The translations under genes and the position numbers were made by a program. DNA of 64,000 nucleotides from Candidatus Woesearchaeota archaeon (lineage in GTDB: Archaea; Nanobdellota; Nanobdellia; Woesearchaeales; UBA9642), in assembly GCA_003599145.1 (NCBI GenBank), contig QZIT01000005.1, positions 59,502 to 123,501 on the forward strand, written 5' to 3'. Shown here one piece after another: positions 16,272-40,611 of this stretch. The notes beneath the pieces were generated by a model. That model was not told where the DNA came from. It did not search any database and saw only the letters and a list, made by a program, of their open reading frames with translations. Each line of letters opens with the position of its first letter. The first letter of the stretch is position 1.

Positions 16272-16304
16272 GTTTATAAAGAATCCAGAATACCTTATTC
16301 TTAT

Positions 16305-16388
16305 GCGGGGATGGCAGAGCGGTCAAATGCGGCAGGCTTAGGACCTGTTCCCTTAGTGGGTACGTGGGTTCAAATCCTACTCCCCGCA
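16305..16388 (+). tRNA. tRNA-Leu (anticodon TAG), intron-less, long variable arm
   Basis: Acceptor gcgggga/tccccgc, anticodon stem gcagg/cctgt with loop cTTAGGa, variable arm ccc-ttagt-ggg, T arm gtggg-ttcaaat-cctac. Confidence 0.9.
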
Positions 16389-16582
16389 TATTTTAACCAT
16401 TAAGTTCATGCGCTTATCCGAAAATTCTCCGGTTTATTTGCCCATAAATATAAATAGAAGAAGATCTTACAGACTTTTATGAAAATTGCAAAAGAATGGT
16501 TTACAGCTAAAAAGTTCATCTATATCTATAAAGAAGAAAAAGATTTTGATTGGCTTGATGATATTTTAAAAGGTGAAAACTG

Positions 16583-16771
16583 ATGTCTTCTGATAATAGA
16601 ATTGGAAGATTTGGCTTAGCAATAACTGCTTTTTATAATAATGGAAATTTTGAAGTTTTGGTACAAAGTGCCAACGAAGGAATACCTATAGAATTGGTTC
16701 TTATGCAACTTAAAGCGTTTCTAAGAAATCAGGAAAACAACTATTTTAATAATTTTGATAAGGCGTTCTAG
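16583..16771 (+). CDS. Hypothetical small protein (62 aa), possibly coupled to a 34-aa ORF at 16479-16584
   Basis: ATGA overlap with the upstream mini-ORF MKIAKEWFTAKKFIYIYKEEKDFDWLDDILKGEN. No recognisable motif. Confidence 0.3.
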   Translation: MSSDNRIGRFGLAITAFYNNGNFEVLVQSANEGIPIELVLMQLKAFLRNQENNYFNNFDKAF

Positions 16772-17493
16772 CCTATCAAATTCCAGCGTTTAATCAGCTT
16801 TGGCTTCTTAAACCTATCAACCAATTGGGCATAACGACTTTTCTTTTCTATATAATAGACCTTCTTTCCAAGCTTCTTTTCCAGCTTTTCAAGGGTTTTT
16901 TCATCTGCTTGCAACTGCTCTAAAGCATAGCCTGCAAGGCTATAAAGCTTTTTAAGCCTATAATTCTTAATATAATCAACCAGCTTTGACTGATTGACTG
17001 TAGCATCTTTGCCTATGGCAAGAAAATTATCAAGCCCCCCTAAAAGCTCTAAATGCAACAAGCAGTCTAAAAACGTCCTTTCCATATCGCTCACCTTAAC
17101 TTTTTGATTGCCTATAACTCTTTCCTCAACCCCAAAAAAGCTTTTTGTTTTGTATATATAATAATCCCTGTTGTAAATTCTGAGCTTTTTATTGACATCA
17201 GAAGCTATATAGATATTCTGGCTTTCAGCCAAGTCATGAATTTGCAGGGCAGTAACCAAAGAGAAATAGTACTTTTTTCTTAACCTAGAGGCAACCAGGA
17301 TGGGGTCAGGAACATACTGTTCATCTCCAAACGGCACAATATGATACAGCCCTTTATGGATGCGTTTAATGTAGTTTTTAGCCAACAGCCTTTGTATTGT
17401 ATTTTTGGCAACCTGATAGTTCTTTGTTATAGCCTTTACATCAGTAAGCGTAAAAACTCTTTGGTTATAGAGCAATTTATAGACTTTGAGCAT
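16768..17493 (-). CDS. Winged-helix regulator resembling the AbiEi-antitoxin/COG5340 N-terminal domain
   Basis: MLKVYKLLYNQRVFTLTDVKAI...AKNTIQRLLAKNYIKRIHKGLYHIV matches the AbiEi_4-type wHTH pattern. The track ORF begins at TTG 17535; the first ATG is 17493. No AbiEii nucleotidyltransferase partner lies adjacent. Confidence 0.45.
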   Translation of the reverse strand: MLKVYKLLYNQRVFTLTDVKAITKNYQVAKNTIQRLLAKNYIKRIHKGLYHIVPFGDEQYVPDPILVASRLRKKYYFSLVTALQIHDLAESQNIYIASDVNKKLRIYNRDYYIYKTKSFFGVEERVIGNQKVKVSDMERTFLDCLLHLELLGGLDNFLAIGKDATVNQSKLVDYIKNYRLKKLYSLAGYALEQLQADEKTLEKLEKKLGKKVYYIEKKSRYAQLVDRFKKPKLIKRWNLIG

Positions 17494-17705
17494 GTTTCTC
17501 TTCAATATTCCCTTTTTTATCGATAAAATAATCAAAAATGATTACCATTTTAACTAGGAAAGGCAAGGTTTCTTAAATTTCTTTCGATTTTCTAAATTTC
17601 CAATTGTATTCTCTGGTTGATGATGAAAGTCTAAAAATGCAGAATTCAACGGTTTGGGGAGTTTTAAATAAACACCCCCTCTTAGGACCGAGGCGTACAC
17701 CAAAA

Positions 17706-21956: not shown

Positions 21957-22166
21957 ATGAGGGAGATGGAGAGAGAAGACCTAACTTATTTTGTAAACAA
22001 ATATTGTAACATTATCCTTGAAAATGGATTTACCTATACTGGGATTCTGAAGAAAATTAATGATAACACTATAGTATTTGATGACCGATTTCAAGGCTTA
22101 AAAATATTCGACCTAAGTATTATCACTGGCATCGGTGAGGCAGGTGAGAAAAATGACCGAAGATAA
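21957..22166 (+). CDS. Hypothetical small beta-rich protein (69 aa)
   Basis: Its ORF end overlaps the next gene's start. No secure motif. Confidence 0.4.
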   Translation: MREMEREDLTYFVNKYCNIILENGFTYTGILKKINDNTIVFDDRFQGLKIFDLSIITGIGEAGEKNDRR

Positions 22167-23442
22167 GGATAACTCACCTCAAATCACGAATGATAGATGG
22201 ATTGAACTAAAACAAATATGGTATCAATTATTTGAATTACGACAGATTGAGGCGTCCGACACAGTTAAAGATTGTTCATTATTAATGTGTTTAGGAGCAA
22301 TACTCAACAAACATTTTTTAACTTTTCACCTTAAAACTTCAAGAAAAATAGAAGACTTAAGACTTCATCTTGTTTGGATGATTGATTCAAGAGCAGGTAA
22401 GGGTGAAGTAACTGGCTTAATGCATGATGTGTGTTCAGGCTTCATTATAATAGCACTTCCAACAAGCATTTCAGATACTGCCCAAATTGGAGGGGCGGAT
22501 AGAAAAGGAAAAGAGGTAGAAGGCATATACAAAACAAATGACCTATGCATCCATGATGAATTTGAAAACTTCTTCAAAAACAAAGACTGGAATAGTGATG
22601 TATTTGGCAATATTCGAAAGAATTGCGATACGTATATGTCAGCAACAAACTATCTTCGAAATACCAAGATATCTACTGATAAAATAGAAGGATTCTATGG
22701 AAAATCAACCCTATTTTTATCTAGCTATCCTATATTGGAGTGTATACAACAAATAGTTGAAAGCGGTACATTTCAAAGATTCGTTTTTATATTCGAGAAA
22801 GTTGATATAGCAAAATCAAAAAGAATATTTGTAGCGTTAAAACAAAAACCTAAAGATGAAAAGATATTAACGGATAAATTACTAACTGAAAAGATGGCAT
22901 CATTTAGACAAATTATAACTGCCATTCTCAACGAATCATCATCAATAAGCCTTGGAGACGAAGCATATAATGAAACTGTTGACGAATTTATAGTTGAGAC
23001 GGAAAAACACTATAATAGTCAGTCAGAGGAGGTCGCGAGGCTTATTAGAAGTTATCAAGTCGGGTTATTGCTACAGATACAAAAGATTTCTGCAATAGTT
23101 GGGATAGTGCGGGGTAAACCTGTTGTTGAGGCTAAAGAAATCCAATATGCAAAAAATCTAGTGATGGAAAATTTCAATAGGTTAATACTCGAGACCAGTC
23201 TTTTCGGGGTAGAATACGAGAAGGTTAAACAATGGGTGGATGACGTCAGGACGGCTCTGAAAAATCAAGTTGAACCATTAAGTAAAATGGAAATCAATAA
23301 GTTAATGGGTGTTTACTGGGGGTTAAAATCTCCTAATAGCATAAATGACAGACTAAAGAAGGTAGTGCCATTTACTTTAGAATTATGTCGGAAAGAAGCT
23401 AATACTGAATATTGGAGACTGAAAAGCATTTATGGAGGTTAA
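22153..23442 (+). CDS. Divergent MCM-like AAA+ ATPase (putative element replicative helicase)
   Basis: Ordered matches to the MCM AAA+ core. Walker A region LHLVWMIDSRAGKGEV (compare IHILLVGDPGTAKSQ). Walker B DLCIHDEFENF (compare CCIDEFDKM). Sensor-1-like TLFLSSYP. Arg-finger-like GTFQRFVFIF (compare LLSRFDLIF). No N-terminal OB/Zn domain is evident. Confidence 0.5.
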   Translation: MTEDKDNSPQITNDRWIELKQIWYQLFELRQIEASDTVKDCSLLMCLGAILNKHFLTFHLKTSRKIEDLRLHLVWMIDSRAGKGEVTGLMHDVCSGFIIIALPTSISDTAQIGGADRKGKEVEGIYKTNDLCIHDEFENFFKNKDWNSDVFGNIRKNCDTYMSATNYLRNTKISTDKIEGFYGKSTLFLSSYPILECIQQIVESGTFQRFVFIFEKVDIAKSKRIFVALKQKPKDEKILTDKLLTEKMASFRQIITAILNESSSISLGDEAYNETVDEFIVETEKHYNSQSEEVARLIRSYQVGLLLQIQKISAIVGIVRGKPVVEAKEIQYAKNLVMENFNRLILETSLFGVEYEKVKQWVDDVRTALKNQVEPLSKMEINKLMGVYWGLKSPNSINDRLKKVVPFTLELCRKEANTEYWRLKSIYGG

Positions 23443-24256: not shown

Positions 24257-26971
24257 ATGAATGAGAAACAGACTAGAGAGGAACTGATTGATAAGCAATT
24301 AAAGTCAGTCGGTTGGCTCAAAAGTTACATAAAAGAAGAAGTAAATTCAGTTAAATCTAAATTTAAAATTAAGGAATATGTTCTTTCTCAAGGTCAAGGA
24401 GACGATTCTGGCAGGTTTATTGACTATTTATTATTAGCAGAAGATAATTCTCCAATTGCGTTAATAGAAGCAAAGAAATTTTCCGAATCAGAAGATAAAG
24501 GAAGAGCTCAAGCTAGGACTTATATAAAAGATATTGAGAGTCAAACAGGAGAAAGAATTCCAGTTTTCTTAACCAACGGTCATAAATGGTTGCTAATTGA
24601 CCAAGACGGAGTTGAAAGACACGTTAGCGGTATATTTTCCCAATCCGATTTGAAACGAAGAATGGAATTATATAGAAAGAGGAGAGACCCAACAAAAATA
24701 AGCATTGACAGAATAGTTGACCGTCCAAGAAGTATACTTGTAGTGAAACAATTAATGGAACATATTCAAAAAGGGCACAGGTCAGCATTAATTTCTATGG
24801 CAACAGGGACGGGGAAGACAAGAGTTGCTATGTCAATGATTGATGTTCTGTTAAGGGCAAATGTTGTCAGAAATGTTCTCTTTATCGCAGATAGAATTGC
24901 ATTGACTAATCAAGCTAAATCAGCAGGATTTAAAGAATTTTTCTCCGAGGCAGTTATTGACTTAAGGGAAAATCCCAAAAGTTTTCCAAACGGGTTGTAT
25001 GTTACAACTGTACAAACATTAAGAAGCGGTAAGAATATTAAGTATTATGAAAGGTTCAGTCCGGGATTCTTTGATTTGATTATCTTTGACGAAGCACACA
25101 GGTCAATTTATGACCCTAATAGAGAAGTTCATAGGTATTTTGATGCGATAAGATTAGGACTTACAGCAACACCCTCGTCAGCAGAAAGCAAAAATACTTT
25201 TGAATTATTTGGTTGTGATGGGAACAAACCCACTGTAGAGTATTCTTATGATGAAGCTATAAGAGATGGAGTTCTTGTTCCATATAATGCGCAAATGATT
25301 GACACAAAAATATTATCTTTAGGTATTGAGGGAGCAACCCTTTCTAAGCCATTACAGCTTCAGCTTATGAAGCAAGAGGAAGACCCAAGATATATGATGC
25401 TTCCGGGTTCTGCTTTTGCCAAAGTTTTTATGGATGATAAAACAAATGAGTTAGTTGTTAGGGAATTTTTGAATAGATGCTATAAGTCTGATGAAGGGAA
25501 ACCTGCAAAAACAATCTTCTTTTGCGCAAATATAGCACATGCAAAACATATTAAAAAAATATTCAATAAATTAGACCCTAAACTAAGTAATGATGTTCAA
25601 ATAATTGTTTCTGAAATTTACAGGTATACCGATGAAATTGCAAGATTTAAATTGGATTCTGAACCAAGAATTGCCTTATCTGTTGGTGTACTTGATACTG
25701 GAGTAGATATTCCAGAAGTATGTAATCTAGTTTTTGCAAAGCCCGTATTCTCTGGAATAAGATTCTGGCAGATGCTTGGAAGAGGAACAAGAAATATTTA
25801 TGCATGCAAACATAAGGAATGGCTTCCAAATAGAGAGAAAAATGATTTTTTAATAATAGATTTCACGATTGGCGGACATTCAAATGTTAAGTATCATCAT
25901 CTAAAAGAAGCCAAAGAAGCAAAAGTTGGAGTAGATGCACTTACGAAGATTTTCCTAAATAGGGTTGAATTATTGAAGAAAAAATTAGATGATAAACAAA
26001 AGAAATTTGTTGAAAATAAGATAATAGAGGACGTTGATGCTCTGAATAAGGATTCTTTTATTGTTCGTGAGAAATTGCCAATCATTAAAAAAGTGGTTTC
26101 TCGTAAATTTGATTTAAAAGATTATGTTGAAGAATTGAAAAATGAGATTGCACCTCTTATTTCTCTTAATCCTGGAAAAAATCCATTGGTCACTGCTTTT
26201 ATTTTGCAGGTAGAAAAACTATTTGGTTACATCCTTGAAGAGAATATGAATAAGATTTACGAAGTGAAAGAGTATGTTAAGGAAAAAATGGAGAATATCT
26301 TGCAGAAAGACCATTTAGAGAGTGTGCAGGAGAAAAGAGAAGATATAATGAAAGTATTCCAAGACGCTTTCTGGGATGAATTAACTTTTGATGATGTTGA
26401 ATTTATGCTTAAGGAATTAGCTCCACTCATGATTTATTATGAGAAAAATCCAAAAAAGATGATTCAAGTAGATGCTCCCGATTTAATTTTAAGAGTTGAG
26501 GATTTTAAGAAAGAAGTTAAAGAGGATGAAGAACTTAAAAGATTCTTAGAAACAAATCCTCTGATTAAAAAGATAAAAGACGGTGAAGGAATAACCCCTG
26601 CTGAACTTCTTAAGCTTGAATCTCAATTGCGAGAGTTAAGACCTGAGATAACAATTGATAATGTCCAAAGGATACAAAAGATTGATTTCCTGCTGTTCTT
26701 AAGAAAAATACTAGGATTAAAGCAAGAGTATGACCCGCAGGTATTGATTGAAAGAGAATTTGATGCTCACATAATTGAGATGAATCATAATTATAATTCT
26801 GAGCAGATAAAGTTCTTGCAGGTCTTAAAAAAGGTGTTTGCAAGAACAAAACACATAGAATTAAAGGACTTTACAGTTCCTCCTCTTTCTAATGAAAGAC
26901 CTCTTGATAAATTCCAGACTTCTGAATTGCAAAAGATAGTTATTGAGTGTAATAAGATAAAAATGAAATAA
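24257..26971 (+). CDS. hsdR: Type I restriction enzyme R subunit (HsdR, COG4096/EcoEI-like)
   Basis: N-terminal PD-(D/E)xK nuclease (FIDYLLLAEDNSPIALIEAKK). SF2 helicase Walker A ATGTGKT, DEAH box IFDEAHRS, motif III TATP. Long helical C-terminal region. Confidence 0.85.
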   Translation: MNEKQTREELIDKQLKSVGWLKSYIKEEVNSVKSKFKIKEYVLSQGQGDDSGRFIDYLLLAEDNSPIALIEAKKFSESEDKGRAQARTYIKDIESQTGERIPVFLTNGHKWLLIDQDGVERHVSGIFSQSDLKRRMELYRKRRDPTKISIDRIVDRPRSILVVKQLMEHIQKGHRSALISMATGTGKTRVAMSMIDVLLRANVVRNVLFIADRIALTNQAKSAGFKEFFSEAVIDLRENPKSFPNGLYVTTVQTLRSGKNIKYYERFSPGFFDLIIFDEAHRSIYDPNREVHRYFDAIRLGLTATPSSAESKNTFELFGCDGNKPTVEYSYDEAIRDGVLVPYNAQMIDTKILSLGIEGATLSKPLQLQLMKQEEDPRYMMLPGSAFAKVFMDDKTNELVVREFLNRCYKSDEGKPAKTIFFCANIAHAKHIKKIFNKLDPKLSNDVQIIVSEIYRYTDEIARFKLDSEPRIALSVGVLDTGVDIPEVCNLVFAKPVFSGIRFWQMLGRGTRNIYACKHKEWLPNREKNDFLIIDFTIGGHSNVKYHHLKEAKEAKVGVDALTKIFLNRVELLKKKLDDKQKKFVENKIIEDVDALNKDSFIVREKLPIIKKVVSRKFDLKDYVEELKNEIAPLISLNPGKNPLVTAFILQVEKLFGYILEENMNKIYEVKEYVKEKMENILQKDHLESVQEKREDIMKVFQDAFWDELTFDDVEFMLKELAPLMIYYEKNPKKMIQVDAPDLILRVEDFKKEVKEDEELKRFLETNPLIKKIKDGEGITPAELLKLESQLRELRPEITIDNVQRIQKIDFLLFLRKILGLKQEYDPQVLIEREFDAHIIEMNHNYNSEQIKFLQVLKKVFARTKHIELKDFTVPPLSNERPLDKFQTSELQKIVIECNKIKMK

Positions 26972-26996
26972 TTAGGTTAACCTATGGTAAACCTAA
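26972..26996 (+). terminator. Hairpin between hsdR and the next transcription unit
   Basis: ttaggtt (26972-26978) pairs with aacctaa (26990-26996). Confidence 0.3.
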
Positions 26997-27005: not shown

Positions 27006-27015
27006 ATTTATATAT
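27006..27015 (+). promoter_or_regulatory. TATA box for the RHH132-X618-hsdS-hsdM unit
   Basis: atttatatat lies about 30 nt upstream of ATG 27037 (leaderless spacing). Confidence 0.45.
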
Positions 27016-27036: not shown

Positions 27037-27435
27037 ATGGTCAAAAAGCCAATAAGAGTTCAAGAGAATAAAGTCGTAATGGCAAAATTATCCAGAGAAG
27101 ATTTTATTAAATTGCAGAAGCATTGCACTATCAAAGATGAATCTGTTAATTCTGTCGTGAAAAAGGCTATAATGACCGAAGTTGACTCTCCTGTTCCGCA
27201 TATGCTTGCAGGAAAAAATCTTTTTGTTTACAACAAAAACAAAGATAACTTTAGCTGGAGAGTTATGCTTGATAATGGCTTGAGGGTGGATATTGAAGAA
27301 GATATATCTGCCGAATATGTATCACAATTATTTAATTCACTTAAAGAGGCAATTGATGAAAGAGAAACTTACATCAAGAAGGAAAGCACGGATGCTGTTG
27401 CCATACCTAGTAAATTAGTGAGGAAAGGATTATAA
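27037..27435 (+). CDS. RHH-domain protein (132 aa) with an extra C-terminal domain
   Basis: N-terminus VVMAKLSREDFIKLQKHCTIKDESVNSVVKKAIMTEV fits the ribbon-helix-helix pattern. Its stop TAA is directly followed by ATG 27436. Confidence 0.5.
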   Translation: MVKKPIRVQENKVVMAKLSREDFIKLQKHCTIKDESVNSVVKKAIMTEVDSPVPHMLAGKNLFVYNKNKDNFSWRVMLDNGLRVDIEEDISAEYVSQLFNSLKEAIDERETYIKKESTDAVAIPSKLVRKGL

Positions 27436-29292
27436 ATGGAAAAAAGTGAAATTATCAACAAGTATATTGGCAGTAAAGACGTTGGTAGTTTCTTCAATGA
27501 CAATAAATCAGAATTTGAGCAATTTCACATAATAGATAAAAGCAGAAATATAAAAAAAGGTAAATTAATTAAGCAAATAAAGGTGGATTTGAGGCACTTA
27601 TATGAAGATAGTAGAAATAATTTATTTCTATTTTGTAAACGAAAAGAAGAGACATCAGATAAAACTTTAAATCCTATTAAGTGTCTGGACAAACCCTATT
27701 TTATCTTTAAAATAGATAATGAGGAATTATTTTTATTCGGAAATTCTAGATTATTCTTTAAGAGTTTCAACAGATATCAAAAAAATGTATTAAAACAAAA
27801 AAACCTATACGTTTTTGAGCAACAAGAAAAACATATTAAAGAAAGCTTCAATGCTACCAAGTTCATAGAAACACTACTTAAACTGAATAAGGAACAAGGA
27901 ATTCAAGTTTATGAAATATTATTAAATTCTTTGGAGCTGTTCAGTAAAAAAATCAGATGCCAATTTTCATCAGAATTAAAGAAAGATGATATTTTAGAGT
28001 TATTAGCTAAAGAAGAATTAAAAAATTTGTTTCTAAAAGAATTAAAAATAGAATTGATTAATTCTATAAGTTTCAAAGACAATAAAGGAAATCAAGAAAC
28101 CTTAAAAATAAGGGAGATAGAATTTGGCAAAATTGAGTTTATCTGGAAAAAGAAAAAGTTTTCAGAATTACGAAAGACATTGAGCACTTTATTTAATATT
28201 TATGAAAATAAAACAGTTCTATATATTTCCAATGGAGACTTAGATTCGCTCTTTAGAGAAATAGAAGTTACAGCTTACAAGAGAGATAAGATATATATTA
28301 AAACGATTGAAAAATATGCAGATTATGTTGAAATATATAGAGGTAAAGCCAGAATAAGGTTAAAGAATACAATTAAATCATTTAAAGATGGCTTAAGGGA
28401 TAAATACATTATTGAGGAAGTCACATATTCTAAATCAAACAACTTATTATTTCCTTCAGTAAGGTCAAGGAGAAGAAATAAGGAATTACTAAGAATTAAA
28501 GATAAAACAAATAAAAAGATATTAGCATACCTGTATCTAAATGAAAATGCATTGTATGATGATAAGGAAAAGTTTTTGAGAGATTTTTTTATATTTATGC
28601 CTTGCTTAATTATTGATTTTAGAAGAAAAGATAATGATAAGTACTATGTTTCTTGTAGTGAATTTTTGAAAAAATTAAAAGAAAATGATACAAACTACTT
28701 TGAAAAAATTATCACAGAGAATAAAAAAAATCTAATTGAAGATATAGAATCTACTTCTTTTAAGGATTTATTTGCTGTAGTTACAGGTAAAATATTATCT
28801 AATTTCAACAATTACAATAAGAAATTAAAACCACAGAGAAAGGGAGAGTTTTATGAGAAACTGGTTTTTATTTTATTTTCAATTCTCTTTAAAGTGGAAA
28901 GGTTGGGTGGACCCAATAAACATGATGGAAACGTCTTCATAGATAATAGCACTTTCATAGGATATGATACAAAAAATCTGACAAAAAACAATCTTGAAAG
29001 TTTTTTGAATAAAAAAACAAAAAAGTTCAAGGATAAGATATACATCAAAAAGAACAATATAAAACATTACTTCTTCATATTTGAGAATATCAATGAAGTC
29101 TTCTTTAAAGCATTAGTTACAAAGATAAAAGAAGATGTATCTGGGGAAGTATATATTAAAGCGTTTGATATTCATTTTATAAAGAATTTATTTGATAAGA
29201 TAAATCAAAAAGGTATTGCCAATTATAGCAGAACTGATAAACAAAACCTCATAAATCAATTATTGGAAAAAAAGGACGAGATAATAAAATGA
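27436..29292 (+). CDS. 618-aa protein: unknown N-terminal ~465 aa plus C-terminal FokI-cleavage-domain-like PD-(D/E)xK nuclease
   Basis: aa 470-585 align motif by motif with the FokI catalytic domain. EFYEKLVFILFSILFKVERLGGPNKHDGNVF matches ILEMKVMEFFMKVYGYRGKHLGGSRKPDGAIY. FIGYDTKNL matches GVIVDTKAY (D497, D511, K513; K513 codon at nt 28972-28974). HYFFIFENI matches KFLFVSGHF. ATGA overlap with hsdS. Confidence 0.6.
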   Translation: MEKSEIINKYIGSKDVGSFFNDNKSEFEQFHIIDKSRNIKKGKLIKQIKVDLRHLYEDSRNNLFLFCKRKEETSDKTLNPIKCLDKPYFIFKIDNEELFLFGNSRLFFKSFNRYQKNVLKQKNLYVFEQQEKHIKESFNATKFIETLLKLNKEQGIQVYEILLNSLELFSKKIRCQFSSELKKDDILELLAKEELKNLFLKELKIELINSISFKDNKGNQETLKIREIEFGKIEFIWKKKKFSELRKTLSTLFNIYENKTVLYISNGDLDSLFREIEVTAYKRDKIYIKTIEKYADYVEIYRGKARIRLKNTIKSFKDGLRDKYIIEEVTYSKSNNLLFPSVRSRRRNKELLRIKDKTNKKILAYLYLNENALYDDKEKFLRDFFIFMPCLIIDFRRKDNDKYYVSCSEFLKKLKENDTNYFEKIITENKKNLIEDIESTSFKDLFAVVTGKILSNFNNYNKKLKPQRKGEFYEKLVFILFSILFKVERLGGPNKHDGNVFIDNSTFIGYDTKNLTKNNLESFLNKKTKKFKDKIYIKKNNIKHYFFIFENINEVFFKALVTKIKEDVSGEVYIKAFDIHFIKNLFDKINQKGIANYSRTDKQNLINQLLEKKDEIIK

Positions 29293-30422
29293 AGAATACA
29301 TTGCCCGAAGGATGGAAGGAAGTTGAGCTTGGAGATATTTTTAACTTTCAAAAGAAATCAAATATAAAAGCGGGTGATAACCAAAAAGAAGGGAAATATA
29401 AATTCTTTACATCAAGTGATATTCAAAGCAAATTCATAGACAATGCGGTTTTTGATGGAGAATATTTAATATTTAGTACTGGTGGAAGTGCTGGAGTTCA
29501 TTATTGTAATGAAAAATTTTCAACTTCAACAGATTGCTTTGTTGTGAAAGTTGACAATAGATTGATTGCAAAATACGTTTACTACTATCTTTTCACAAAC
29601 ATTCACATTTTAGAAGCAGGGTTTAAAGGAGCAGGATTAAGACATATCTCAAAAGAATATATTAAAAGAATAAAAATTGTTTTCCCTGAAAAAAAAGAGA
29701 CCCAGCAAAAAATAGTCTCAATATTGGAAAAAGCGGAAAAAGCAAAAGAAATGCGAAAAGAAGCAGATGAATTGACAAAATATTTCCTGAAAAGCATTTT
29801 TATGGAGATGTTTGGAGATACTGAAAATAATGCAAAAAAAATAGAAATTAAGAAAATAGCAGATATATGTGAAGTCAAGACTGGAGGAACACCAGATAGA
29901 GCAAAATCATCTTACTGGGATGATGGAACTATTCCTTGGGTAAAAACTACCGAAATCAAAGAAAATACTATCTATAATGTAGATGAATTCATAACTTCCG
30001 AAGGATTGAAGAATAGTAATGCTACCATTTTCCCAAAAGGCACTATTTTAATAGCCATGTATGGTCAAGGAATAACTCGTGGAAAAGTTGCGAAACTGGG
30101 AATTGATGCTGCAACAAACCAAGCATGTGCAGCTCTTTTACCCTCAAAAAAATACAATACAGATTATCTATTATTTTGTTTAAAAATTTCTTATAATCGT
30201 CTAAGGGAATTAGGTAGGGGCGGAAACCAACCGAATCTAAATTTAAGTATTATAAAGTCTTTCAATATTATCTTACCATCATTAGAACTTCAAAATAAAT
30301 TTGCTTCAATCGTCAATGAAGTTCAGCAAATGAAAGACCAACAGAAGCATTCAAAAGAGCATCTTGATAATTTATTTAATGCTTTAAAGCAAAAAGCATT
30401 CAAGGGGGGACTAACATGTTAG
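29289..30422 (+). CDS. hsdS: Type I R-M specificity subunit (HsdS), two target-recognition domains
   Basis: LPEGWKEVELGDIF start of TRD1. Central conserved helix (QQKIVSILEKAEKAKEMRKEADELTKYFLKSIFMEMFG). TRD2 plus C-terminal helix (LQNKFASIVNEVQQMKDQQ...LFNALKQKAF). Confidence 0.85.
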   Translation: MKNTLPEGWKEVELGDIFNFQKKSNIKAGDNQKEGKYKFFTSSDIQSKFIDNAVFDGEYLIFSTGGSAGVHYCNEKFSTSTDCFVVKVDNRLIAKYVYYYLFTNIHILEAGFKGAGLRHISKEYIKRIKIVFPEKKETQQKIVSILEKAEKAKEMRKEADELTKYFLKSIFMEMFGDTENNAKKIEIKKIADICEVKTGGTPDRAKSSYWDDGTIPWVKTTEIKENTIYNVDEFITSEGLKNSNATIFPKGTILIAMYGQGITRGKVAKLGIDAATNQACAALLPSKKYNTDYLLFCLKISYNRLRELGRGGNQPNLNLSIIKSFNIILPSLELQNKFASIVNEVQQMKDQQKHSKEHLDNLFNALKQKAFKGGLTC

Positions 30423-31885
30423 ATTCAGAACTAAAATCAAAAATAAACTTACTGTGGAATAAATTTTGGAGTGGAGGTATCAGTAATCCTCTCCAAGCAA
30501 TTGAACAAATGTCTTATCTTATTTTCATGAAAAGATTAGAAGATGAGGATGTTTCTAGAGCACAAAATGCTAAGCTATTGGGAAGTAATCATAATTCAAT
30601 CTTTAAAGGAAATGAAGACTGTAAATGGTCTAAATGGACAGAAATGCCTGCTGAACAGATGCTAGAGCACGTTAGAGATACTGTATTCCCATTCCTGAGA
30701 AAGTTAAATGGAGGAGAGAATTCAGTTTATAGTAAATATATGAAAAATGCTTCTTTCTCCATACCTACCGCTTCCCTATTAGCAGAAGCTGTAAAAATAA
30801 TCAATGATATGCACATTAAAGAGCAAAATAGAGACACGAAAGGAGATTTATACGAATATCTTCTAGGACAACTGCAAACAGCAGGAAAAAATGGACAATT
30901 CAGGACTCCAAGACATATAATCAAAATGATGGTAGAAATCCTCAATCCTAAATATGGGGACAAAATCTGCGACCCTGCTTGTGGAACAGCTGGTTTCTTG
31001 GTTAGTTCATTTGAACATATTTTAAAAAATAATACATCTGCAGATTTAGTCAAGGAAGGAAACTTTGCTGGAGATAAGTTAAATGAAAATCAATGGAGAA
31101 TATTAAGAGAAGAAACCCTTTATGGATATGACTTTGATGATGTGATGCTGAAAATATCATTAATGAACTTGATGATGCATGGTATAAATAATCCGAATGT
31201 GGAACAAAAAAATACCTTATCAAAAAGATTTGATGAATCAAACTGCTATGATATAATATTAGCTAATCCGCCATTTAAAGGAAGCATTGATGAGTCAGAA
31301 ATAGGAGAAAATTTTAGAACACAAACTAAAAAGACAGAACTATTATTCTTGGAATTGATGTTTAATCTTCTTACAAATAGCGGAAGATGCGCAGTTATTG
31401 TTCCAGATGGAGTTTTATTCGGGAATTCAAAAGCCCACAAGAAGATAAAAGAACTATTGATTGAGAAATGCAGATTAGATGCAGTTATATCTATGCCTTC
31501 AGGAGTATTCAAGCCATACGCAGGCGTTTCTACTGCGGTTCTTTACTTTACCAAAGGAGAGCCAACAAAGGAAGTCTTTTTTTATGATATGGAAGCAGAT
31601 GGATTCAGCTTAGATGATAAAAGAGTAATAATCGAGCAGAATGACATACCAGATATTATTGAGCGATTCAAAAATAGACAGAAAGAAAAGCCGACAGACA
31701 GAAAGAAAAAATGCTTTTTTGTTCCTATTGCAGAAATTAAAGCCAACAACTATGATTTAAGTATCTCAAAGTATAAATTGATTGAATACGAAGAAGTTGA
31801 ATATGAAAAGCCAGAAGTAATCAAGAAAAAGATTTTAGAATTAGAAAGTAAGATTATTGAGAAATTAAAGGAAATAAATATTTAG
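30416..31885 (+). CDS. hsdM: Type I R-M N6-adenine DNA methyltransferase subunit (HsdM)
   Basis: HsdM_N-like N-terminus (LWNKFWSGGISNPLQAIEQMSYLIFMKRLED). AdoMet motif I DPACGTAGFL. Catalytic motif IV NPPF (ILANPPFKGS). 7-nt overlap with hsdS. Confidence 0.9.
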   Translation: MLDSELKSKINLLWNKFWSGGISNPLQAIEQMSYLIFMKRLEDEDVSRAQNAKLLGSNHNSIFKGNEDCKWSKWTEMPAEQMLEHVRDTVFPFLRKLNGGENSVYSKYMKNASFSIPTASLLAEAVKIINDMHIKEQNRDTKGDLYEYLLGQLQTAGKNGQFRTPRHIIKMMVEILNPKYGDKICDPACGTAGFLVSSFEHILKNNTSADLVKEGNFAGDKLNENQWRILREETLYGYDFDDVMLKISLMNLMMHGINNPNVEQKNTLSKRFDESNCYDIILANPPFKGSIDESEIGENFRTQTKKTELLFLELMFNLLTNSGRCAVIVPDGVLFGNSKAHKKIKELLIEKCRLDAVISMPSGVFKPYAGVSTAVLYFTKGEPTKEVFFYDMEADGFSLDDKRVIIEQNDIPDIIERFKNRQKEKPTDRKKKCFFVPIAEIKANNYDLSISKYKLIEYEEVEYEKPEVIKKKILELESKIIEKLKEINI

Positions 31886-33453: not shown

Positions 33454-34944
33454 TTAAAGAGTATTAAGATGACTAAATCCTATAAACTTTACTTCTTTAT
33501 ATTCTTGAATTGTTGGATGGCTTTTTGTTATTACGACTCCCTTGATTGTGGTTATCATCTTAGCATCCTTACAGATTTGAGAAAGGTTATCTTGCACATG
33601 TTTTATTTTATCCAATAGACTCACTATATCAGTAACTGTCTCAGACCCTTTAAGATATGTGTACTTTTTCCCATCAACTACACCTTTTAAATCACGTTCT
33701 CGGTGATAATGTATTCTGCGATGTTCAAAATAAGGCTTTATATCCCAAACCTTGGTTTCAATAACATACAAAGTATTGCCTTTCCATGCTATATTGTCAA
33801 TTTCTAAAGATGCTTGTTTTTTATCCGTATAATTTTGAATTAGGGTAAATCCTTGTTCACGAAGTTTTTCTGGAACCATTGTCTTTTCAAAAATCATAGA
33901 ATGCTTATCAATTTCTTTTTTGAATTCTGAATCATAATACATGGGATAATAGAATAAACCCATTAACCTTATGAAATTGTGTGTAATAAGTAGATGATTG
34001 TCAACATTAAGAAAAAAAGGAAATACCTGTTTATTATCTTTGGAAAAGACTAAGTTATCGTATACAATATTTTTATCTAACTCTTTAAAATAGACTCTAA
34101 CAGCTCTCTTAAATTCATGGGAATTTGTTTGTGTCATTAACCCTGTTTGCTGTCCAAATTTCTTAATAAAGGATAAAATAAACTGAGGAGATATTTTTAC
34201 ATCTTTCAGGTATTGAAGGTTAAATGTTTCTGCATACAATTTATTTTTAGTTAATGCCCCATAAAAAGCCAAAAGAGTAGGAAACAAAATTTGTATTGTC
34301 TCTTCTGGAGTTCTTTCAGTAGGAACTGGTTTAGATTTATTTATACGTTCATATTCGGCTTTGTGAACCTCAAAAAAAGCTTTTGCAGAGTCCTCATTCA
34401 TAATTAAATTATCTTCAAATGATTCTAATATGGGGACATAATCCTCGTTGATTCTAAAACTAAAATTAGACATTAATCTATCTTTATCTATTGATTTCAG
34501 GTCGAATGAACTTTTTGATATGTAATGCCCTAAATCTTCTTCAATGAGAAATTTACGTTCGGCAATTCTTACAAATCCAGCAAATAAGTCTATCAGTTCA
34601 GGGGTATTTTTCTCATTAGCCTCATCATCGCCATCAACATCATAATCTTCCATCACTCTTTTTATTAAAAGGTTTACCGCAATAAATTTACTTAATTCAA
34701 TAGATGGTTTTTCTGTGAAGAAGGTTGAAGCAATTTTTTCCCTATAGCCGAAAAGCCAAACAAGTAAACGTCGTTTAATGAACTTACCCAATACCTGTTT
34801 AAATCCGTTATCAAACCAATTTATTTGAGCCTGTGCAACACTAAGCGCAACATCTTTTGGTAAGAATTCTATACCATTACATTTTGGGCAGATTAATTCA
34901 TTCTCTTGAAGTATTTGCCGTGTAGCACATTTTTGACAAGTCAT
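33454..34944 (-). CDS. Zn-ribbon protein with a C-terminal PD-(D/E)xK (restriction-endonuclease-fold) motif
   Basis: N-terminal CxxC-x13-CxxC (MTCQKCATRQILQENELICPKCNG). C-terminal E353 (IFEKTMV), D383 (LEIDNIAW) and E396-T-K398 (LYVIETKVWD) in canonical order, at about nt 33745-33900. Confidence 0.45.
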   Translation of the reverse strand: MTCQKCATRQILQENELICPKCNGIEFLPKDVALSVAQAQINWFDNGFKQVLGKFIKRRLLVWLFGYREKIASTFFTEKPSIELSKFIAVNLLIKRVMEDYDVDGDDEANEKNTPELIDLFAGFVRIAERKFLIEEDLGHYISKSSFDLKSIDKDRLMSNFSFRINEDYVPILESFEDNLIMNEDSAKAFFEVHKAEYERINKSKPVPTERTPEETIQILFPTLLAFYGALTKNKLYAETFNLQYLKDVKISPQFILSFIKKFGQQTGLMTQTNSHEFKRAVRVYFKELDKNIVYDNLVFSKDNKQVFPFFLNVDNHLLITHNFIRLMGLFYYPMYYDSEFKKEIDKHSMIFEKTMVPEKLREQGFTLIQNYTDKKQASLEIDNIAWKGNTLYVIETKVWDIKPYFEHRRIHYHRERDLKGVVDGKKYTYLKGSETVTDIVSLLDKIKHVQDNLSQICKDAKMITTIKGVVITKSHPTIQEYKEVKFIGFSHLNTL

Positions 34945-34976: not shown

Positions 34977-35540
34977 TTACTTCATTCTCAAGAGATTATA
35001 CACAGTTCCATAACTACACCCTACCTCGTCGCCTATCTGCTCTAAGGTCTTGCCTTCCTCACGTAGTCTATGTACTTCGTGACGGTTAATCTGTAAGGGT
35101 TTCCGACCCTGCTTAATAACACTCTTTCTTTTCCCTGCTAATACCCTTTCCCTTATGATATCCCTTTCGAATTCGGCAAATGACCCTATTATATTAAATA
35201 AAAGTTTGCCTGTAGAATCCATTGTATTTAGGTTCTGGCTATATGATATGAAGTCGATATTCTTCGTCTTTAGTTCTTCCATAATTTGTAACAGATGAAG
35301 TAAACTCCTTCCCATGCGGTCAAGTTTCCATACGAGGACGGCATCAAATAACCGCTTACGCATATCCTCCATAAACAAATTGAATTGTGGTCTTGAAGTC
35401 TTAGCTCCACTCTCTCCAATATCAGTATACTCTCTGTAGATGTCATACTTCATACGCTGGCAGTAATCCCTCAGCTCTTTCAGTTGCATATCGGGGCTTT
35501 GCTCATACGTTGAAACCCTTACATAAAGTGCTACTTTCAA
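34977..35540 (-). CDS. Serine recombinase (resolvase/invertase family) with C-terminal HTH
   Basis: MKVALYVRVSTYEQ catalytic-Ser motif, then DRMGRSLLHLLQIM, FAEFERDIIRERV, and HTH TLEQIGDEVGCSYGTVYNLL. TTG start preceded by GGAGGT. Confidence 0.85.
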   Translation of the reverse strand: MKVALYVRVSTYEQSPDMQLKELRDYCQRMKYDIYREYTDIGESGAKTSRPQFNLFMEDMRKRLFDAVLVWKLDRMGRSLLHLLQIMEELKTKNIDFISYSQNLNTMDSTGKLLFNIIGSFAEFERDIIRERVLAGKRKSVIKQGRKPLQINRHEVHRLREEGKTLEQIGDEVGCSYGTVYNLLRMK

Positions 35541-35784: not shown

Positions 35785-36147
35785 CTATCTGTCCTCCGGA
35801 AGCATTATTGTAAACTTGTCAGTTTCGTTTTGTTCCAGGTATACTGTTTTTCTGTCGCCATTAGGAAATTCTACTTTTCCTGAAAAGAAAGAATCTGGTT
35901 CTGTGAAGTTTTTGCTCTTTTTCTTGACGATAAACAGGCATTGATTGAGCAGGTCTAGTAAGTTTGGAAAGCTTATCTTTCCGTCTTTAACATAACCCTC
36001 TGACAATAAACTCAAAGTTACGTAATTGAATATTCCTTTCTCCCAATCCTTGTTTATTTTGGTTATATCGACCAGTATTCCGTCTTCCTCAGCTTGTTTG
36101 GATGAGTAGCCATATATTTCATCGCCAAAATCATCGTCTTTGTTCAT
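35785..36147 (-). CDS. Small acidic MGE-associated protein (resembles DUF6573-type proteins)
   Basis: IYGYSSKQAEEDGILVDITK resembles the Y-(S/T)-R-x-Q-A-x-x-D-G-V-L-V-D-V motif recalled from small plasmid/ICE proteins. ATGA overlap with the integrase stop. Family assignment is from memory only. Confidence 0.35.
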   Translation of the reverse strand: MNKDDDFGDEIYGYSSKQAEEDGILVDITKINKDWEKGIFNYVTLSLLSEGYVKDGKISFPNLLDLLNQCLFIVKKKSKNFTEPDSFFSGKVEFPNGDRKTVYLEQNETDKFTIMLPEDR

Positions 36148-37910
36148 CTTTGCACCTCCTTTTTGATAATGTAAATTTCACGTAATTTCTTGACCAATTC
36201 AGGGTCGGCAAGTATTATTTCAAACATCAAATCCTTAATGTCTATACTCGAAGAATTGGCAGGAACGTCTTTTGCGAATACTGCTTTTTCTAATGCCTCT
36301 TCCCTTTCTTTGATTTTACCAATGGCTAATGCCGTCTTAAGATTCAAAGGATAGCCACATTTGATACAGAATTGCGCATCGAATGGATTTGTGTATGAAC
36401 AGACGCTATTGTGACATATCTGGACGTCTAATAGTCCTTTCTTTTCTTGTTCCTCTTTGGTAACCAGACCGTATGAAGTAAGAATCTTGTCGGCTACGTC
36501 TTTAGCGTTAAGGTGGACGTATGTTAGAGCCATTGGAGAATTAGGTTCCCACCCTGCATGGATTTTCAATTCAGATTCAGATAATACTCTTGCCATTCGT
36601 GTAAGATTTGTATGACGGAATAGGTGAGGATGAATATGTCGTGTTATTCCAGCTTGGCTTGCAACTTTTTGAAGGATATAGAACACAGCTGTAGGTGTCA
36701 TTCTATGACCGAAATGTGAGCCTGAAGTTGAGACAAACAATGGTCTTTTAGGGTCATCTCTAAATGGATGATTCTTGAGCCAAAGACGTAAATGAGAAAC
36801 AGAAATGAAAAGCTGATTGGTTCTTTCCCCTGTTTTTCCTCTTAGAATTATGGTTGCAACTTGGTGTCCATAATTTGTTCCATCGACTTTTATCTCACGT
36901 ATTTTTAGGTCTTCAATATTGCAATTCATTAATTCGCTAATCCTTGCAGAAGAATCATATAAAACCGAAAGTATCGCCCTATCTCTTTCGTCAGGGCATT
37001 TCTCAATCATCGCCTTTACTTCATTGTCAGGGATTATTTCTTTTGGAATAACATCATCTTTCTCACTTTTACGTCGGGTGTTTAGCCATTCAACAACTTT
37101 AGGATATTGTCGAGGATGTTCCTCCCCAAACATTTTATAGATGAACCTGTAAAAATCAAGGATATTGCCAATGTACATCTGATTCATCTTTGGCTTATCG
37201 CTTGGCTTTTTCTTGGATAACCTCGCTTGAACCATAGTCAGATAATCTTGTATGTCCTTTCGTTTTGCTTGACGATATGTCTTATTTCTATCTTTGAGAA
37301 ATACACCCAATCGCTTTATGTAATACAATCTACCGCAAATACTTGAGTTTGAGCAAACTTTTCCAGAAGTCATCTTATATTCGTAGAAGTCCTTTAAGGT
37401 TTTCAGGTTCTTAACATCTAATACTTCCTGAGGAAACTTCTTTCGGAGTTGGGCTTGAGTTAATTGTCGGGAATCTTTGCGTTTACAAACCATTATTTCG
37501 TTAGTTAATAATGCCTCTACTCTCCTCTTATTCTGTGATTCAAAAGTAGGTCTATCGGGTGTGTAGGCTTGGGGGTTTACATACGCTAATGCTATGTTTA
37601 TGGGGAAGTTCGTATGCCTTTTGACATATTGATAGAAGTGGGTAATATGCGAGCGGTAATTCTTAGCTGATTGGTTTGTTAACTGCTTTTCAGCCAAGAA
37701 GGCATCAATATCCTTTGGGTCGGCAAGTTCGTAAGGCTTACTTAAGAATGCACCAAAAGCCAGTAATATCTTTGTCTTCTGATAAATGGCGTCCTCTTCA
37801 TTGTAGCACCTGACATGATTAACCCATTTAAGTAAGAGTTCCTTCTGCTCATGGATGGTAATTTCATTGCCAAATAACTCTTCAATCCTTTCCTTGCTAA
37901 TAAGTTCCAT
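36144..37910 (-). CDS. Large tyrosine recombinase/integrase (588 aa) with a C-terminal zinc ribbon
   Basis: Catalytic residues in order: R (DSSARISEL), H-x-x-R (HPHLFRHT), W/H (IHAGWEP), Y (ALTYVHL). Two SAM-like core-binding-type segments (KNYRSHITHFYQYV and GNILDFYRFIYKMF). C-terminal CHNSVC...CIKCG. Confidence 0.85.
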   Translation of the reverse strand: MELISKERIEELFGNEITIHEQKELLLKWVNHVRCYNEEDAIYQKTKILLAFGAFLSKPYELADPKDIDAFLAEKQLTNQSAKNYRSHITHFYQYVKRHTNFPINIALAYVNPQAYTPDRPTFESQNKRRVEALLTNEIMVCKRKDSRQLTQAQLRKKFPQEVLDVKNLKTLKDFYEYKMTSGKVCSNSSICGRLYYIKRLGVFLKDRNKTYRQAKRKDIQDYLTMVQARLSKKKPSDKPKMNQMYIGNILDFYRFIYKMFGEEHPRQYPKVVEWLNTRRKSEKDDVIPKEIIPDNEVKAMIEKCPDERDRAILSVLYDSSARISELMNCNIEDLKIREIKVDGTNYGHQVATIILRGKTGERTNQLFISVSHLRLWLKNHPFRDDPKRPLFVSTSGSHFGHRMTPTAVFYILQKVASQAGITRHIHPHLFRHTNLTRMARVLSESELKIHAGWEPNSPMALTYVHLNAKDVADKILTSYGLVTKEEQEKKGLLDVQICHNSVCSYTNPFDAQFCIKCGYPLNLKTALAIGKIKEREEALEKAVFAKDVPANSSSIDIKDLMFEIILADPELVKKLREIYIIKKEVQR

Positions 37911-39972: not shown

Positions 39973-40611
39973 ATGGCAAATGAAATAGTCATTACGTATG
40001 AAGTGCTTTTTGACCTTTTGCGCAGAGAAAAAAATAGAGAAGAATTGCAAGAATTAGTGCCTGATTTCTATGAGCAAGTGCTTGCCTACCTTGAAGAGAA
40101 GCAAAAAATGGTAACGCACGATTCAGAGGTATTCGGCAATGAAAAAGCAAAAATACAAATTGCGAACATTAAAAAAATCGTGAAAGAATTATATGAACGA
40201 AGAGAGAGAAAAATCATAAACCTTGCGCTGTATAAATCAAGAGTGAAAAGCAACCTTATCGACACAAGAGCATTGCTCCATCAGGAAAAAGACTTTTTCA
40301 ACGACCTGACTTTGCTGTTGAATCAAACAAGGGAAACCATGCTTGATACTGTTCTCTTGATGAAAAAAATAGAAGCCCATACACCTCACAGCACTGCAGA
40401 AGAAGCTACCGCGCGAGAACAGCCAACAAGTTCAGATGAAGAAAAACAAGATGAAACCAAGCTCATCAGATTTACCCATGCAGTTCCAAAATTTCTAGGG
40501 ACCGCAATGGAAATATACGGACCTTTTGAAGAGGAAGATATTGCGAACTTACCTTCAAAAATTGCACAAGTGCTTATTGAAAAAGGACGCGCAGAAGAAA
40601 TCGCAAAGTAG
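39973..40611 (+). CDS. GINS subunit Gins51 (Gins15 family)
   Basis: N-terminus YEVLFDLLRREKNREELQELVPDFYEQV and C-terminus IRFTHAVPKFLGTAMEIYGPFEEEDIANLPSKIAQVLIEKGRAEEI parallel archaeal Gins51 (compare LRRLLERELSSEELTKIEEEFY ... REYGPFRAGDLVVLPKSIGRVLVERDAAEKV). Confidence 0.7.
   Translation: MANEIVITYEVLFDLLRREKNREELQELVPDFYEQVLAYLEEKQKMVTHDSEVFGNEKAKIQIANIKKIVKELYERRERKIINLALYKSRVKSNLIDTRALLHQEKDFFNDLTLLLNQTRETMLDTVLLMKKIEAHTPHSTAEEATAREQPTSSDEEKQDETKLIRFTHAVPKFLGTAMEIYGPFEEEDIANLPSKIAQVLIEKGRAEEIAK

Follow-up and report, generated by a model that had tools for sequence, protein, structure and literature searches.

A candidate accessory defense nuclease with a predicted FokI-like catalytic core, encoded within a type I restriction-modification operon lineage of DPANN archaea

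What is a 618–amino acid (aa) protein doing among the genes of a type I restriction-modification (R-M) system in an uncultured archaeon? The question is raised by a 64,000-nucleotide (nt) stretch of DNA from a Candidatus Woesearchaeota archaeon (assembly GCA_003599145.1, contig QZIT01000005.1, forward-strand positions 59,502 to 123,501), hereafter the window, in which the gene for this protein, called X618 here (27436 to 29292, + strand), lies between hsdR and hsdS. In the six-frame open reading frame (ORF) list from which gene coordinates were taken, five genes occupy a single strand (+): hsdR (24257 to 26971, 904 aa), a leader gene for a ribbon-helix-helix (RHH)–like protein (27037 to 27435, 132 aa), X618, hsdS (29289 to 30422, 377 aa), and hsdM (30416 to 31885, 489 aa). 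The stop codon of the leader gene directly adjoins the ATG of X618 (TAAATG), X618 ends and hsdS begins within one ATGA, and hsdS overlaps hsdM by 7 nt. An earlier note on this DNA had described the gene order with its coordinates, its junctions, and a TATA box at 27006 to 27015, all of which the ORF list and the sequence bear out. The answer we favor, with doubt and confidence in about equal parts, is that X618 is an autonomous accessory defense nuclease that is embedded in, and co-expressed with, the type I R-M system.

The host operon carries all the components expected of such a system. HsdR is a type IB (EcoAI/EcoEI-like) restriction subunit with a superfamily 2 (SF2) helicase and an EcoEI_R_C domain; it matches Pfam ResIII (E = 2.9e-33), EcoEI_R_C (E = 1.5e-09), and HSDR_N, as well as the PADLOC model REase_I (E = 1.2e-95). 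Its N-terminal nuclease motif is intact (D56 ... E71-A-K73), and the motif FIDYLLL...ALIEAKK is kept in six loci. The assignment to family IB is approximate, since the match to the closest NCBIfam model, EcoAI/FtnUII (type IB; E = 2.5e-72), falls under the equivalog cutoff. HsdS, the specificity subunit, has two target-recognition domains and matches Pfam Methylase_S in two stretches (E = 1.9e-52) and PADLOC Specificity_I (E = 1.3e-57), and HsdM, the N6-adenine methyltransferase subunit, matches Pfam N6_Mtase (E = 3e-66) and HsdM_N (E = 1.2e-14) and PADLOC MTase_I (E = 3.5e-180). With an HsdR, an HsdS with two target-recognition domains, and an HsdM in place, hsdR, hsdS, and hsdM are genuine type I genes.

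The C-terminal part of X618 (aa 436 to 618; 28741 to 29292, + strand) is predicted to be a PD-(D/E)xK endonuclease domain with a FokI-like catalytic core. The predicted catalytic codons, on the + strand, are those of E474 (28855 to 28857), D497 (28924 to 28926), D511 (28966 to 28968), and K513 (28972 to 28974). Across 19 sequences that share ~25% identity, E474, D497, G498, Y510, D511, K513, and N514 are invariant, which gives the full E...(P/H)D...D-x-K signature. The AlphaFold2 (AF2) model of the isolated domain, for which 18 sequences were used, has a predicted local distance difference test score (pLDDT) of 91 and a predicted template modeling (TM) score (pTM) of 0.85; its elements are ordered as helices, then three strands, then an alpha/beta part. 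When this model was compared with the PDB using Foldseek, the 12 top matches were all PD-(D/E)xK nucleases, each of them weak. They include PspGI (E = 0.024), EcoT38I (E = 0.053), the nuclease domain of Avs4 (E = 0.079), Hjc, and MUS81, with EcoRV, I-Ssp6803I, and EcoO109I at lower ranks. The layout of the modeled core and the motif residues support placing the C terminus of X618 in the PD-(D/E)xK superfamily, and judging from its residues, the domain is apparently catalytically competent.

Sequence comparison pointed to FokI in particular. FokI_cleav_dom (PF09254) is the only Pfam family matched by more than two members of the X618 family: five of 18 isolated domains match it (best E = 9.3e-5), and full-length relatives do so at E = 0.0022 to 0.035. 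In every case the match covers that part of the model which holds the catalytic core and stays below its 25-bit gathering threshold; X618 itself gave no match to PF09254 at E ≤ 1. For profile alignments with hhalign, a FokI cleavage-domain sequence was used whose identity had been checked against 1FOK/2FOK (437 bits). Against this single sequence, the X618-domain profile gave P = 7.7e-4. Against a FokI family alignment of 16 sequences (the FokI domain and 15 of 21 collected PF09254-bearing proteins), it gave a score of 37.9, P = 1.2e-4, and a probability of 55% over 47 columns, in a register that places E474/D497/D511/K513 of X618 on E425/D450/D467/K469 of FokI and the LGG motif on LGG. Reversed alignments scored 15.6 to 17.1, 30 column-shuffled FokI alignments scored at most 19.4 (smallest P = 0.059), and the N-terminal PD-(D/E)xK domain of HsdR from the same operons scored 13.5 against the X618 domain. 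The controls rule out generic PD-(D/E)xK resemblance or a compositional artifact as the source of the FokI similarity. By this comparison, the catalytic core of X618 is specifically FokI-like, in the core only and outside formal membership in the family.

Both FokI and X618 carry a PD-(D/E)xK domain at the C terminus, fused behind a large N-terminal part. Their core helix and three strands align, and (H/R)LGG-x-x-K-x-DG and D-T-K motifs are common to both. FokI-like domains are nonspecific cleavage modules that require a separate targeting module, and FokI dimerizes via helices alpha4/alpha5 (D483, R487) for a double-strand cut. In X618, the region beyond D-T-K does not align with FokI in hhalign, so that the correspondence covers only ~47 columns and leaves out the rest of the domain, including the FokI dimerization helices. 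The two also differ in that the N terminus of X618 is unlike FokI recognition domains, that X618 has no dedicated methyltransferase, and that it is almost only archaeal and embedded in type I R-M loci.

In the AF2 model of full-length X618 (pLDDT of 78 overall), the N-terminal region (aa 1 to 435; 27436 to 28740, + strand) forms mixed alpha/beta domains. The earlier note could not assign the first ~465 aa to any family, and the N-terminal region likewise gave no sequence match in the PDB and none below E = 0.1 in Pfam, PADLOC, or NCBIfam; no recognition domain was matched by the N terminus. A fold search with the full-length model against the PDB returned no match at E ≤ 0.001 (best E = 0.089), and the single match below 0.001 in BFVD, with a probability of 0.28 and a TM score of 0.08, was taken as noise. 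The weak PDB matches were to CENP-N (E = 0.089), Chl4-containing kinetochore complexes (E = 0.09 to 0.15), and lambda RexA (E = 0.17 to 0.31); in the viral library, two phage RdgC proteins ranked 4 and 5 (E = 0.038 and 0.11). RexA, RdgC, IML3, and CHL4 share one fold and bind DNA nonspecifically as ring- or horseshoe-shaped dimers (PMC11077077). The RdgC/RexA-type matches involve the N-terminal part of X618, since they are gone when aa 436 to 618 are searched alone. An RdgC/RexA-like module for nonspecific DNA binding or sensing is possibly present there; on these model comparisons, we regard it as a lead and not as a finding.

Two conserved features lie outside the nuclease domain. The stretch of aa 166 to 197 (27931 to 28026) is the most conserved part of X618 within its close subfamily, with 11 invariant positions in KKIRCQFSSELKKDDILELLAKEELK, yet nowhere is the AF2 model less confident (pLDDT of 39 to 50); the stretch may need a partner or DNA in order to fold. 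A P389-x4-D394-x-R396 motif (FIFMPCLIIDFR; aa 389 to 396, 28600 to 28623) is invariant in both subfamilies described below. A second, degenerate nuclease domain around P389, D394, and R396 was considered and found no support, the segment being without a canonical motif.

To what extent is X618 a protein of this one archaeon? Pfam, PADLOC, and NCBIfam returned nothing for it below E = 0.1, and PHROG returned a single chance-level match (E = 0.058). Sequence searches of the PDB gave no match, whether from the protein itself or from profiles of the family and of the domain. No member of the family matched a PADLOC v2 model, in agreement with the earlier note, which knew of no described system of this kind in DPANN archaea. 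A word-indexed search of 5.8 billion cluster sequences recovered eight proteins, with only seven full-length homologs (46 to 74% identity), whose named sources are Nanoarchaeia or Pacearchaeota. A second word-indexed protein search, from alignment A2, returned this close subfamily again and nothing further. The family profile, searched exhaustively as a hidden Markov model (HMM) against 1.84 billion cluster representatives, yielded 13 proteins in all; from this search came a second subfamily (P0010 to P0019; 625 to 650 aa, ~25% identical), whose named members belong to metagenome-assembled genomes (MAGs) of Micrarchaeota and Nanoarchaeota, and a fragment of a third type (P0020/P0028, 657 aa). 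Lengths are alike throughout (~610 to 660 aa), fragments excepted. A DNA pattern scan found seven loci, and a scan of viral sequences found no relatives.

The X618 family, at about 20 proteins among 1.8 billion cluster representatives, is thus very rare in public data and almost exclusively found in DPANN archaea (named after Diapherotrites, Parvarchaeota, Aenigmarchaeota, Nanoarchaeota, plus Nanohaloarchaeota). Rarity and confinement to uncultured members of that group have kept it from being captured from RefSeq. What is new is the family itself, together with its N-terminal region, the fact that it is nearly restricted to DPANN archaea, and the fixed way in which it is coupled to hsdS; defense genes embedded in type I R-M loci are already a known kind, as are fusions of a FokI-like cleavage module with some other region. 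One distant-subfamily member (locus L014, 313 to 2250 on the 7.4-kb contig CAZPPL010000023.1) was binned as "uncultured Gammaproteobacteria" and adjoins genes for a ResIII helicase and an N6_N4 methyltransferase. Since all other named-source members come from DPANN archaea, this bin reflects either mis-binning, which is probable, or horizontal transfer.

The surroundings of the relatives were compared in 17 distinct loci (numbered in the L series below), with the proviso that contexts on short contigs are incomplete. In nine of them the X618 homolog, or X gene, is embedded in operons of one type IB lineage and always adjoins hsdS; the other eight are stand-alone. The close subfamily consists of the window, L001 to L003, L005, L006, L007/L008, L009, and L010, together with the stand-alone L004 (protein P0004). 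In seven of its eight loci, the X gene lies directly upstream of hsdS with an identical ATGA overlap. Since this junction recurs in all seven embedded close-subfamily loci, the layout in the window is not due to chance. Where contigs reach far enough, X and hsdS lie together between hsdR and hsdM, with variable genes in both the hsdR-X and the hsdS-hsdM intervals. The identity of X618 tracks that of HsdR and HsdM, being 74% in L006 (HsdR, 82%; HsdM, 85%) and 52% in L001 (HsdR, 51%; HsdM, 66%), which indicates long co-inheritance; HsdS is only 27 to 34% identical across loci, as expected of specificity subunits.

In the distant subfamily, the X gene of L013/L017 and L023 is placed between hsdS and hsdM with a 1-nt overlap or 1-nt spacing. 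These operons share the type IB lineage of the window, to which their HsdR is 53% and their HsdM 63 to 66% identical. The earlier note had proposed that X618 is embedded and apparently co-expressed with hsdS and hsdM, and this holds across the homologs; it had also asked whether the gene is always next to hsdS and hsdM: it adjoins hsdS in the nine embedded loci, and the eight stand-alone ones have neither gene adjacent.

The stand-alone close relative, P0004, shares 66% identity with X618, more than several embedded members do, and adjoins GmrSD and an NgoPII-type R-M system. In the same locus it is flanked by two paralogs of a TFIIB-like protein (9284 to 9913, − strand; 11949 to 12512, + strand) that are 29% identical to each other (E = 4e-19). 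Seven further stand-alone loci belong to the distant subfamily. Their X genes lie beside an integrase together with a gene pair for an N6_N4 methyltransferase and MjaV (L018); AbiEii, MazG-like, PDDEXK_1, and GmrSD genes (L022); a ResIII plus N6_N4 methyltransferase pair (L014/L016); AbiJ and AAA_14-DUF4143 genes (L015); weak HEPN-like genes (L020); or no recognizable neighbor (L011 and L012). Overall, GmrSD, type II or type III–like R-M, AbiE, or AbiJ genes are neighbors of X in five of the eight stand-alone loci. No neighbor and no adjacent methyltransferase is conserved among the eight, and the architecture of the protein is unchanged in them.

X618 is not the only cargo of these operons. 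The two slots between the hsd genes also hold DUF3800, EMARD_N (PADLOC PDC-S39), Ea47-like, Mrr_cat-like, and OLD-like TOPRIM proteins, as well as DUF4145/HEPN-like proteins with an Rx4H motif. Cargo of this kind was seen at 7687 to 10000 in L001, 2922 to 3581 and 7176 to 7715 in L006, 8857 to 9984 in L007, 172 to 1338 in L009, and 5664 to 6812 in L023. In L001, where several cargo genes are present, X is the one that adjoins hsdS. The slots between the hsd genes of this type IB lineage are a hotspot for embedded defense candidates in DPANN archaea.

These contexts bear on the possibility that X618 is an alternative restriction subunit, docking on HsdM2S1 in place of HsdR or together with it and cutting near the site, without translocation and in a type IIS/IIB-like manner, through dimerized FokI-like domains. 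The translational coupling to hsdS, the apparent co-transcription with hsdS and hsdM but not hsdR, the need of FokI-like domains for a separate targeting module, and an N-terminal region without a recognizable sequence-specific DNA-binding domain would all suit such a role. However, every embedded locus has a complete HsdR with a conserved nuclease motif, and the stand-alone relatives have neither HsdM nor HsdS nearby. X618 shows no similarity to the C-terminal assembly domain of HsdR (EcoEI_R_C), the gene of the distant subfamily occupies a different slot, and unrelated cargo is found in the same slots. With the HsdR nuclease motif intact and 8 of 17 loci stand-alone, this reading is disfavored, and we consider it quite improbable.

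How, then, would X618 be expressed? A TATA-like box, ATTTATATAT, lies on the + strand at 27006 to 27015 (core TTTATATA at 27008 to 27015), 21 to 22 nt before the ATG of the leader gene. This is the usual archaeal spacing and therefore suggests a leaderless or near-leaderless transcript starting at that gene. Upstream of the box, an operator-like element spans 26973 to 26996, with a palindrome (TAGGTTAACCTA, 26973 to 26984) and a repeated half-site (GGTAAACCTA, 26986 to 26995). A TTTAWATA box 21 to 22 nt before the ATG is also present in L001, L005, L006, and L007, and palindromes with GGT(A/T)(A/T)ACC or GTAAAC half-sites precede the RHH genes of L001 (TGGTATACCA, region 6950 to 7000), L007 (GTAAACCT-tt-AGGTTTAC, region 4962 to 5012), and L006 (TTGTAAACT-ca-AGTTTACAA, region 3695 to 3740), with an imperfect one in L005 (promoter region 9105 to 9145). 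The combination of palindrome and TATA box is thus common to five orthologous type IB operons, the window included, and would function as a promoter; X618 would be expressed from it with hsdS and hsdM and not with hsdR.

The RHH-like character of the leader protein (residues ~12 to 50) is indicated by sub-threshold Pfam matches to RHH_7, at E = 0.015 (16.1 bits) for the full length and E = 0.005 (17.5 bits) for the N-terminal 70 aa, against a cutoff of 27 bits. One homolog matches DUF6290 (E = 8.5e-05), and the conservation pattern is compatible with beta-alpha-alpha; an RHH profile gave only chance matches, and no RHH structure, in the PDB. The position of this gene follows the operon and not X. 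In L001/L002, an RHH homolog (33% identity, 115 aa) is the first gene after hsdR, three genes away from X; the protein encoded first after hsdR in L005, L007, and L023 is longer and shares this N terminus; and in L006, the RHH homolog comes after DUF3800. The RHH stop adjoins the X ATG in the window, L006, and L010. In L023 the homolog lies upstream of hsdS, with X beyond hsdS, and X has no RHH gene beside it in L009, in L004, or in any other stand-alone locus. The leader protein is a probable regulator of the whole unit of leader, cargo, hsdS, and hsdM, like the controller protein of an R-M system, and the palindrome in the window is its putative binding site.

The earlier note had instead raised the leader as a controller of X618 itself. 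In that case the two would form a toxin-antitoxin–like pair, or X618 would be a stand-alone type IIS enzyme under a controller protein. Antitoxins with an RHH fold are commonly encoded upstream, and the RHH-like N terminus and the adjoining stop and start codons in three loci fit this pattern. Yet the three intervening genes in L001/L002, the operon of L023, which is headed by the RHH homolog with X on the far side of hsdS, the loci that have X without RHH, and the lack of any cognate methyltransferase except HsdM speak against it. The proposal is largely refuted by synteny, which argues against the leader protein as a dedicated partner of X618, and we hold it to be very improbable.

As an autonomous accessory nuclease, X618 would work as follows. 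Its ~435-aa N-terminal module would bind or sense DNA, possibly in an RdgC/RexA-like manner, and its C-terminal domain would act as a Mg-dependent PD-(D/E)xK endonuclease whose FokI-like domains would dimerize for a double-strand cut, as in FokI. Transcription would proceed from the palindromic operator and TATA box before the RHH leader, jointly with hsdS and hsdM, and X618 translation would be coupled to that of hsdS. Through its embedding, X618 would share regulation from the RHH-controlled promoter and would be transferred along with the R-M system, to which it would add a second, complementary means of destroying invading DNA. For discrimination of self from nonself, a modification-dependent (type IV–like) mode would be the simplest single-protein solution. 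We infer the DNA nuclease activity, the dimerization, the autonomy from HsdM and HsdS, the defense role, and the RHH-mediated regulation. Eight of 17 loci being stand-alone without a conserved partner or methylase, together with the intact HsdR nuclease motif, tilts the balance to an autonomous module. Embedding of this sort is common, and genes embedded in type I R-M loci are frequently defense genes and mostly not mobility genes (10.1101/2024.01.29.577857); a type IV system, TgvAB, is found both embedded in a type I cluster and outside such clusters (PMC11411939).

Several observations weigh against this account. No Foldseek match of the X618 domain in the PDB reaches E ≤ 0.001, and FokI (1FOK/2FOK) is absent from the top 50; the weak PD-(D/E)xK matches therefore support the fold class and not a specific structural kinship to FokI. 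X618 has no Pfam match, and no family member reaches the gathering score of the FokI family. The FokI-type cleavage domain that the earlier note described stands insofar as the core is closest to FokI, with D497/D511/K513 corresponding to D450/D467/K469, and the C-terminal fold is indeed of the PD-(D/E)xK kind; the correspondence is nonetheless confined to the ~47 columns, remains under the Pfam threshold, and is not mirrored among the best 50 fold matches. The fold assignment of the N-terminal region rests on matches of E = 0.04 to 0.3. The type IV–like mode is a guess, since no modified-base–binding fold (SRA, PUA, or YTH) was detected in X618. The ATGA coupling to hsdS is invariable in one subfamily, and the second subfamily lies on the other side of hsdS, which would also fit a physical partnership with HsdS/HsdM. 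Finally, genomes with stand-alone members may carry type I systems elsewhere.

Such a partnership is the core of another explanation, in which X618 is a guard or back-up effector of the PrrC or Ronin type. Binding by HsdM2S1 (or R2M2S1) would silence X618, and a viral anti-restriction protein, such as an Ocr/ArdA-like DNA mimic, would release it, leading to abortive infection or destruction of viral DNA. Precedents are PrrC, which EcoprrI keeps masked, and RonA, a toxin that HsdMS suppresses and that anti-restriction proteins trigger (10.1101/2023.04.06.535777; 10.1101/2024.01.29.577857). The position beside hsdS in all nine embedded loci, with translational coupling through ATGA or a spacing of 1 to 2 nt, favors stoichiometric co-synthesis, and two subfamilies at 25% identity are both tied to one type IB lineage. 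A second nuclease makes sense as a back-up because HsdR is intact, a nonspecific FokI-like domain would need a silencing mechanism, and the conserved aa 166 to 197 are modeled at low confidence, as expected of a fold induced by a partner. Against this stand the 8 of 17 loci without an adjacent hsdM or hsdS, whose members show no domain difference from embedded ones, and the lack of similarity of X618 to PrrC, RloC, or RonA. To our knowledge, moreover, no anti-restriction proteins have been described for DPANN viruses. We therefore consider the guard explanation unlikely, though with a real chance of being right. Also unlikely is that X618 is either an archaeal guard, with a FokI-like nuclease and an RdgC/RexA-like sensor held by HsdM2S1 and freed when a virus disables restriction, or a second, non-translocating cleavage subunit targeted by HsdS.

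Comparison with described systems places X618 closest to the embedded accessory nucleases of type I R-M loci, while making it a member of none. Like PrrC and RloC (as in EcoprrI), it is an accessory nuclease gene nested among hsd genes on the same strand and a candidate back-up effector. PrrC, however, combines an ABC-ATPase with a tRNA anticodon nuclease, whereas X618 shows no apparent P-loop and, by Pfam, PADLOC, and NCBIfam, no similarity to PrrC; its PD-(D/E)xK domain is of the DNA type, and its relatives also occur away from type I loci. Ronin of Escherichia coli ECOR55 resembles it in the tight linkage of an effector gene to hsdS and hsdM, and a model of suppression by HsdMS would fit the coupling seen here; RonA differs in being a 61-aa membrane toxin found without HsdR (10.1101/2023.04.06.535777), X618 being a 618-aa soluble putative nuclease next to an intact HsdR. 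TgvAB and BrxU, type IV enzymes of the GmrSD family embedded in type I R-M or BREX loci, share with X618 the situation of a self-contained nuclease nested in a type I cluster and found also outside such clusters, with a complementary logic aimed at DNA that has escaped the host system, but X618 has no DUF262, DUF1524, or GmrSD domain. The PDC candidates of PADLOC, from type I R-M, BREX, and DISARM loci, represent the same guilt-by-embedding situation, and one gene co-embedded in L001 is PDC-S39; the X618 family, by contrast, matches no PADLOC v2 model.

The R-M operon lies in a low-GC stretch (27 to 34% versus 36 to 40%). A tRNA-Leu gene (16304 to 16389) lies on one side of it, and a serine resolvase (34977 to 35540, − strand) and a tyrosine integrase (36144 to 37910, − strand) lie on the other, followed by archaeal core genes such as that for Gins51 (39973 to 40611). 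No direct repeat of at least 14 nt linking the tRNA-Leu gene to the integrase end was found. The stretch from 16304 to 37910 is probably an integrated defense island, the borders of which this repeat search did not define. Its mobility genes, the integrases that flank several homologous loci, and the weak N-terminal fold matches to the recombination-associated RdgC would be consistent with a nondefense role, with X618 serving the mobile island in recombination, replication, or homing, or acting in DNA repair, and R-M loci merely tolerating the insertion. The same-strand, coupled position among R-M genes is nevertheless kept down to ~51% HsdR identity, five of the eight stand-alone loci neighbor defense or R-M genes and not replication or recombination modules, and genes embedded in type I R-M loci are mostly not mobility genes (10.1101/2024.01.29.577857). 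A nondefense role is, in our estimate, improbable.

Three other genes of the island deserve mention. A 496-aa protein (33454 to 34944, − strand), encoded ~1.6 kb beyond the end of hsdM with one gene between, has a CxxC...CxxC zinc-ribbon–like start and a weakly NERD/Hjc-like (PD-(D/E)xK) C-terminal region (Pfam NERD, E = 0.0026) and is possibly another defense nuclease. Beside the tRNA-Leu gene is an AbiEi-like regulator (16768 to 17535, − strand; Pfam AbiEi_4, E = 1.4e-4), and upstream of hsdR is a 435-aa protein (22135 to 23442, + strand) without a Pfam match and with a weak PHROG match to "DNA primase" (E = 0.0014). These last two may be the mobile element's own machinery.

What does the locus mean beyond the window? 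With the X618 family missing from Pfam, PADLOC, NCBIfam, and PHROGs, it shows how large a part of type I R-M cargo in uncultured lineages has yet to be described. With two diverged subfamilies consistently beside hsdS in one operon lineage, it lends itself well to the question whether embedded genes are passengers or, in the manner of PrrC and Ronin, functional partners of the R-M complex. The palindrome and TATA box before the RHH leader represent a simple archaeal regulatory element. For enzyme engineers, a compact, divergent FokI-like cleavage domain and a possibly DNA-clamping N-terminal module are of potential interest. DPANN archaea have been reported to be poor in known defense systems (PMC12988326), and X618 is a concrete, testable candidate immune gene for them. 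If the guard explanation were true, it would be the first DNA-cutting back-up immunity of the PrrC/Ronin style reported for archaea, and especially for DPANN symbionts.

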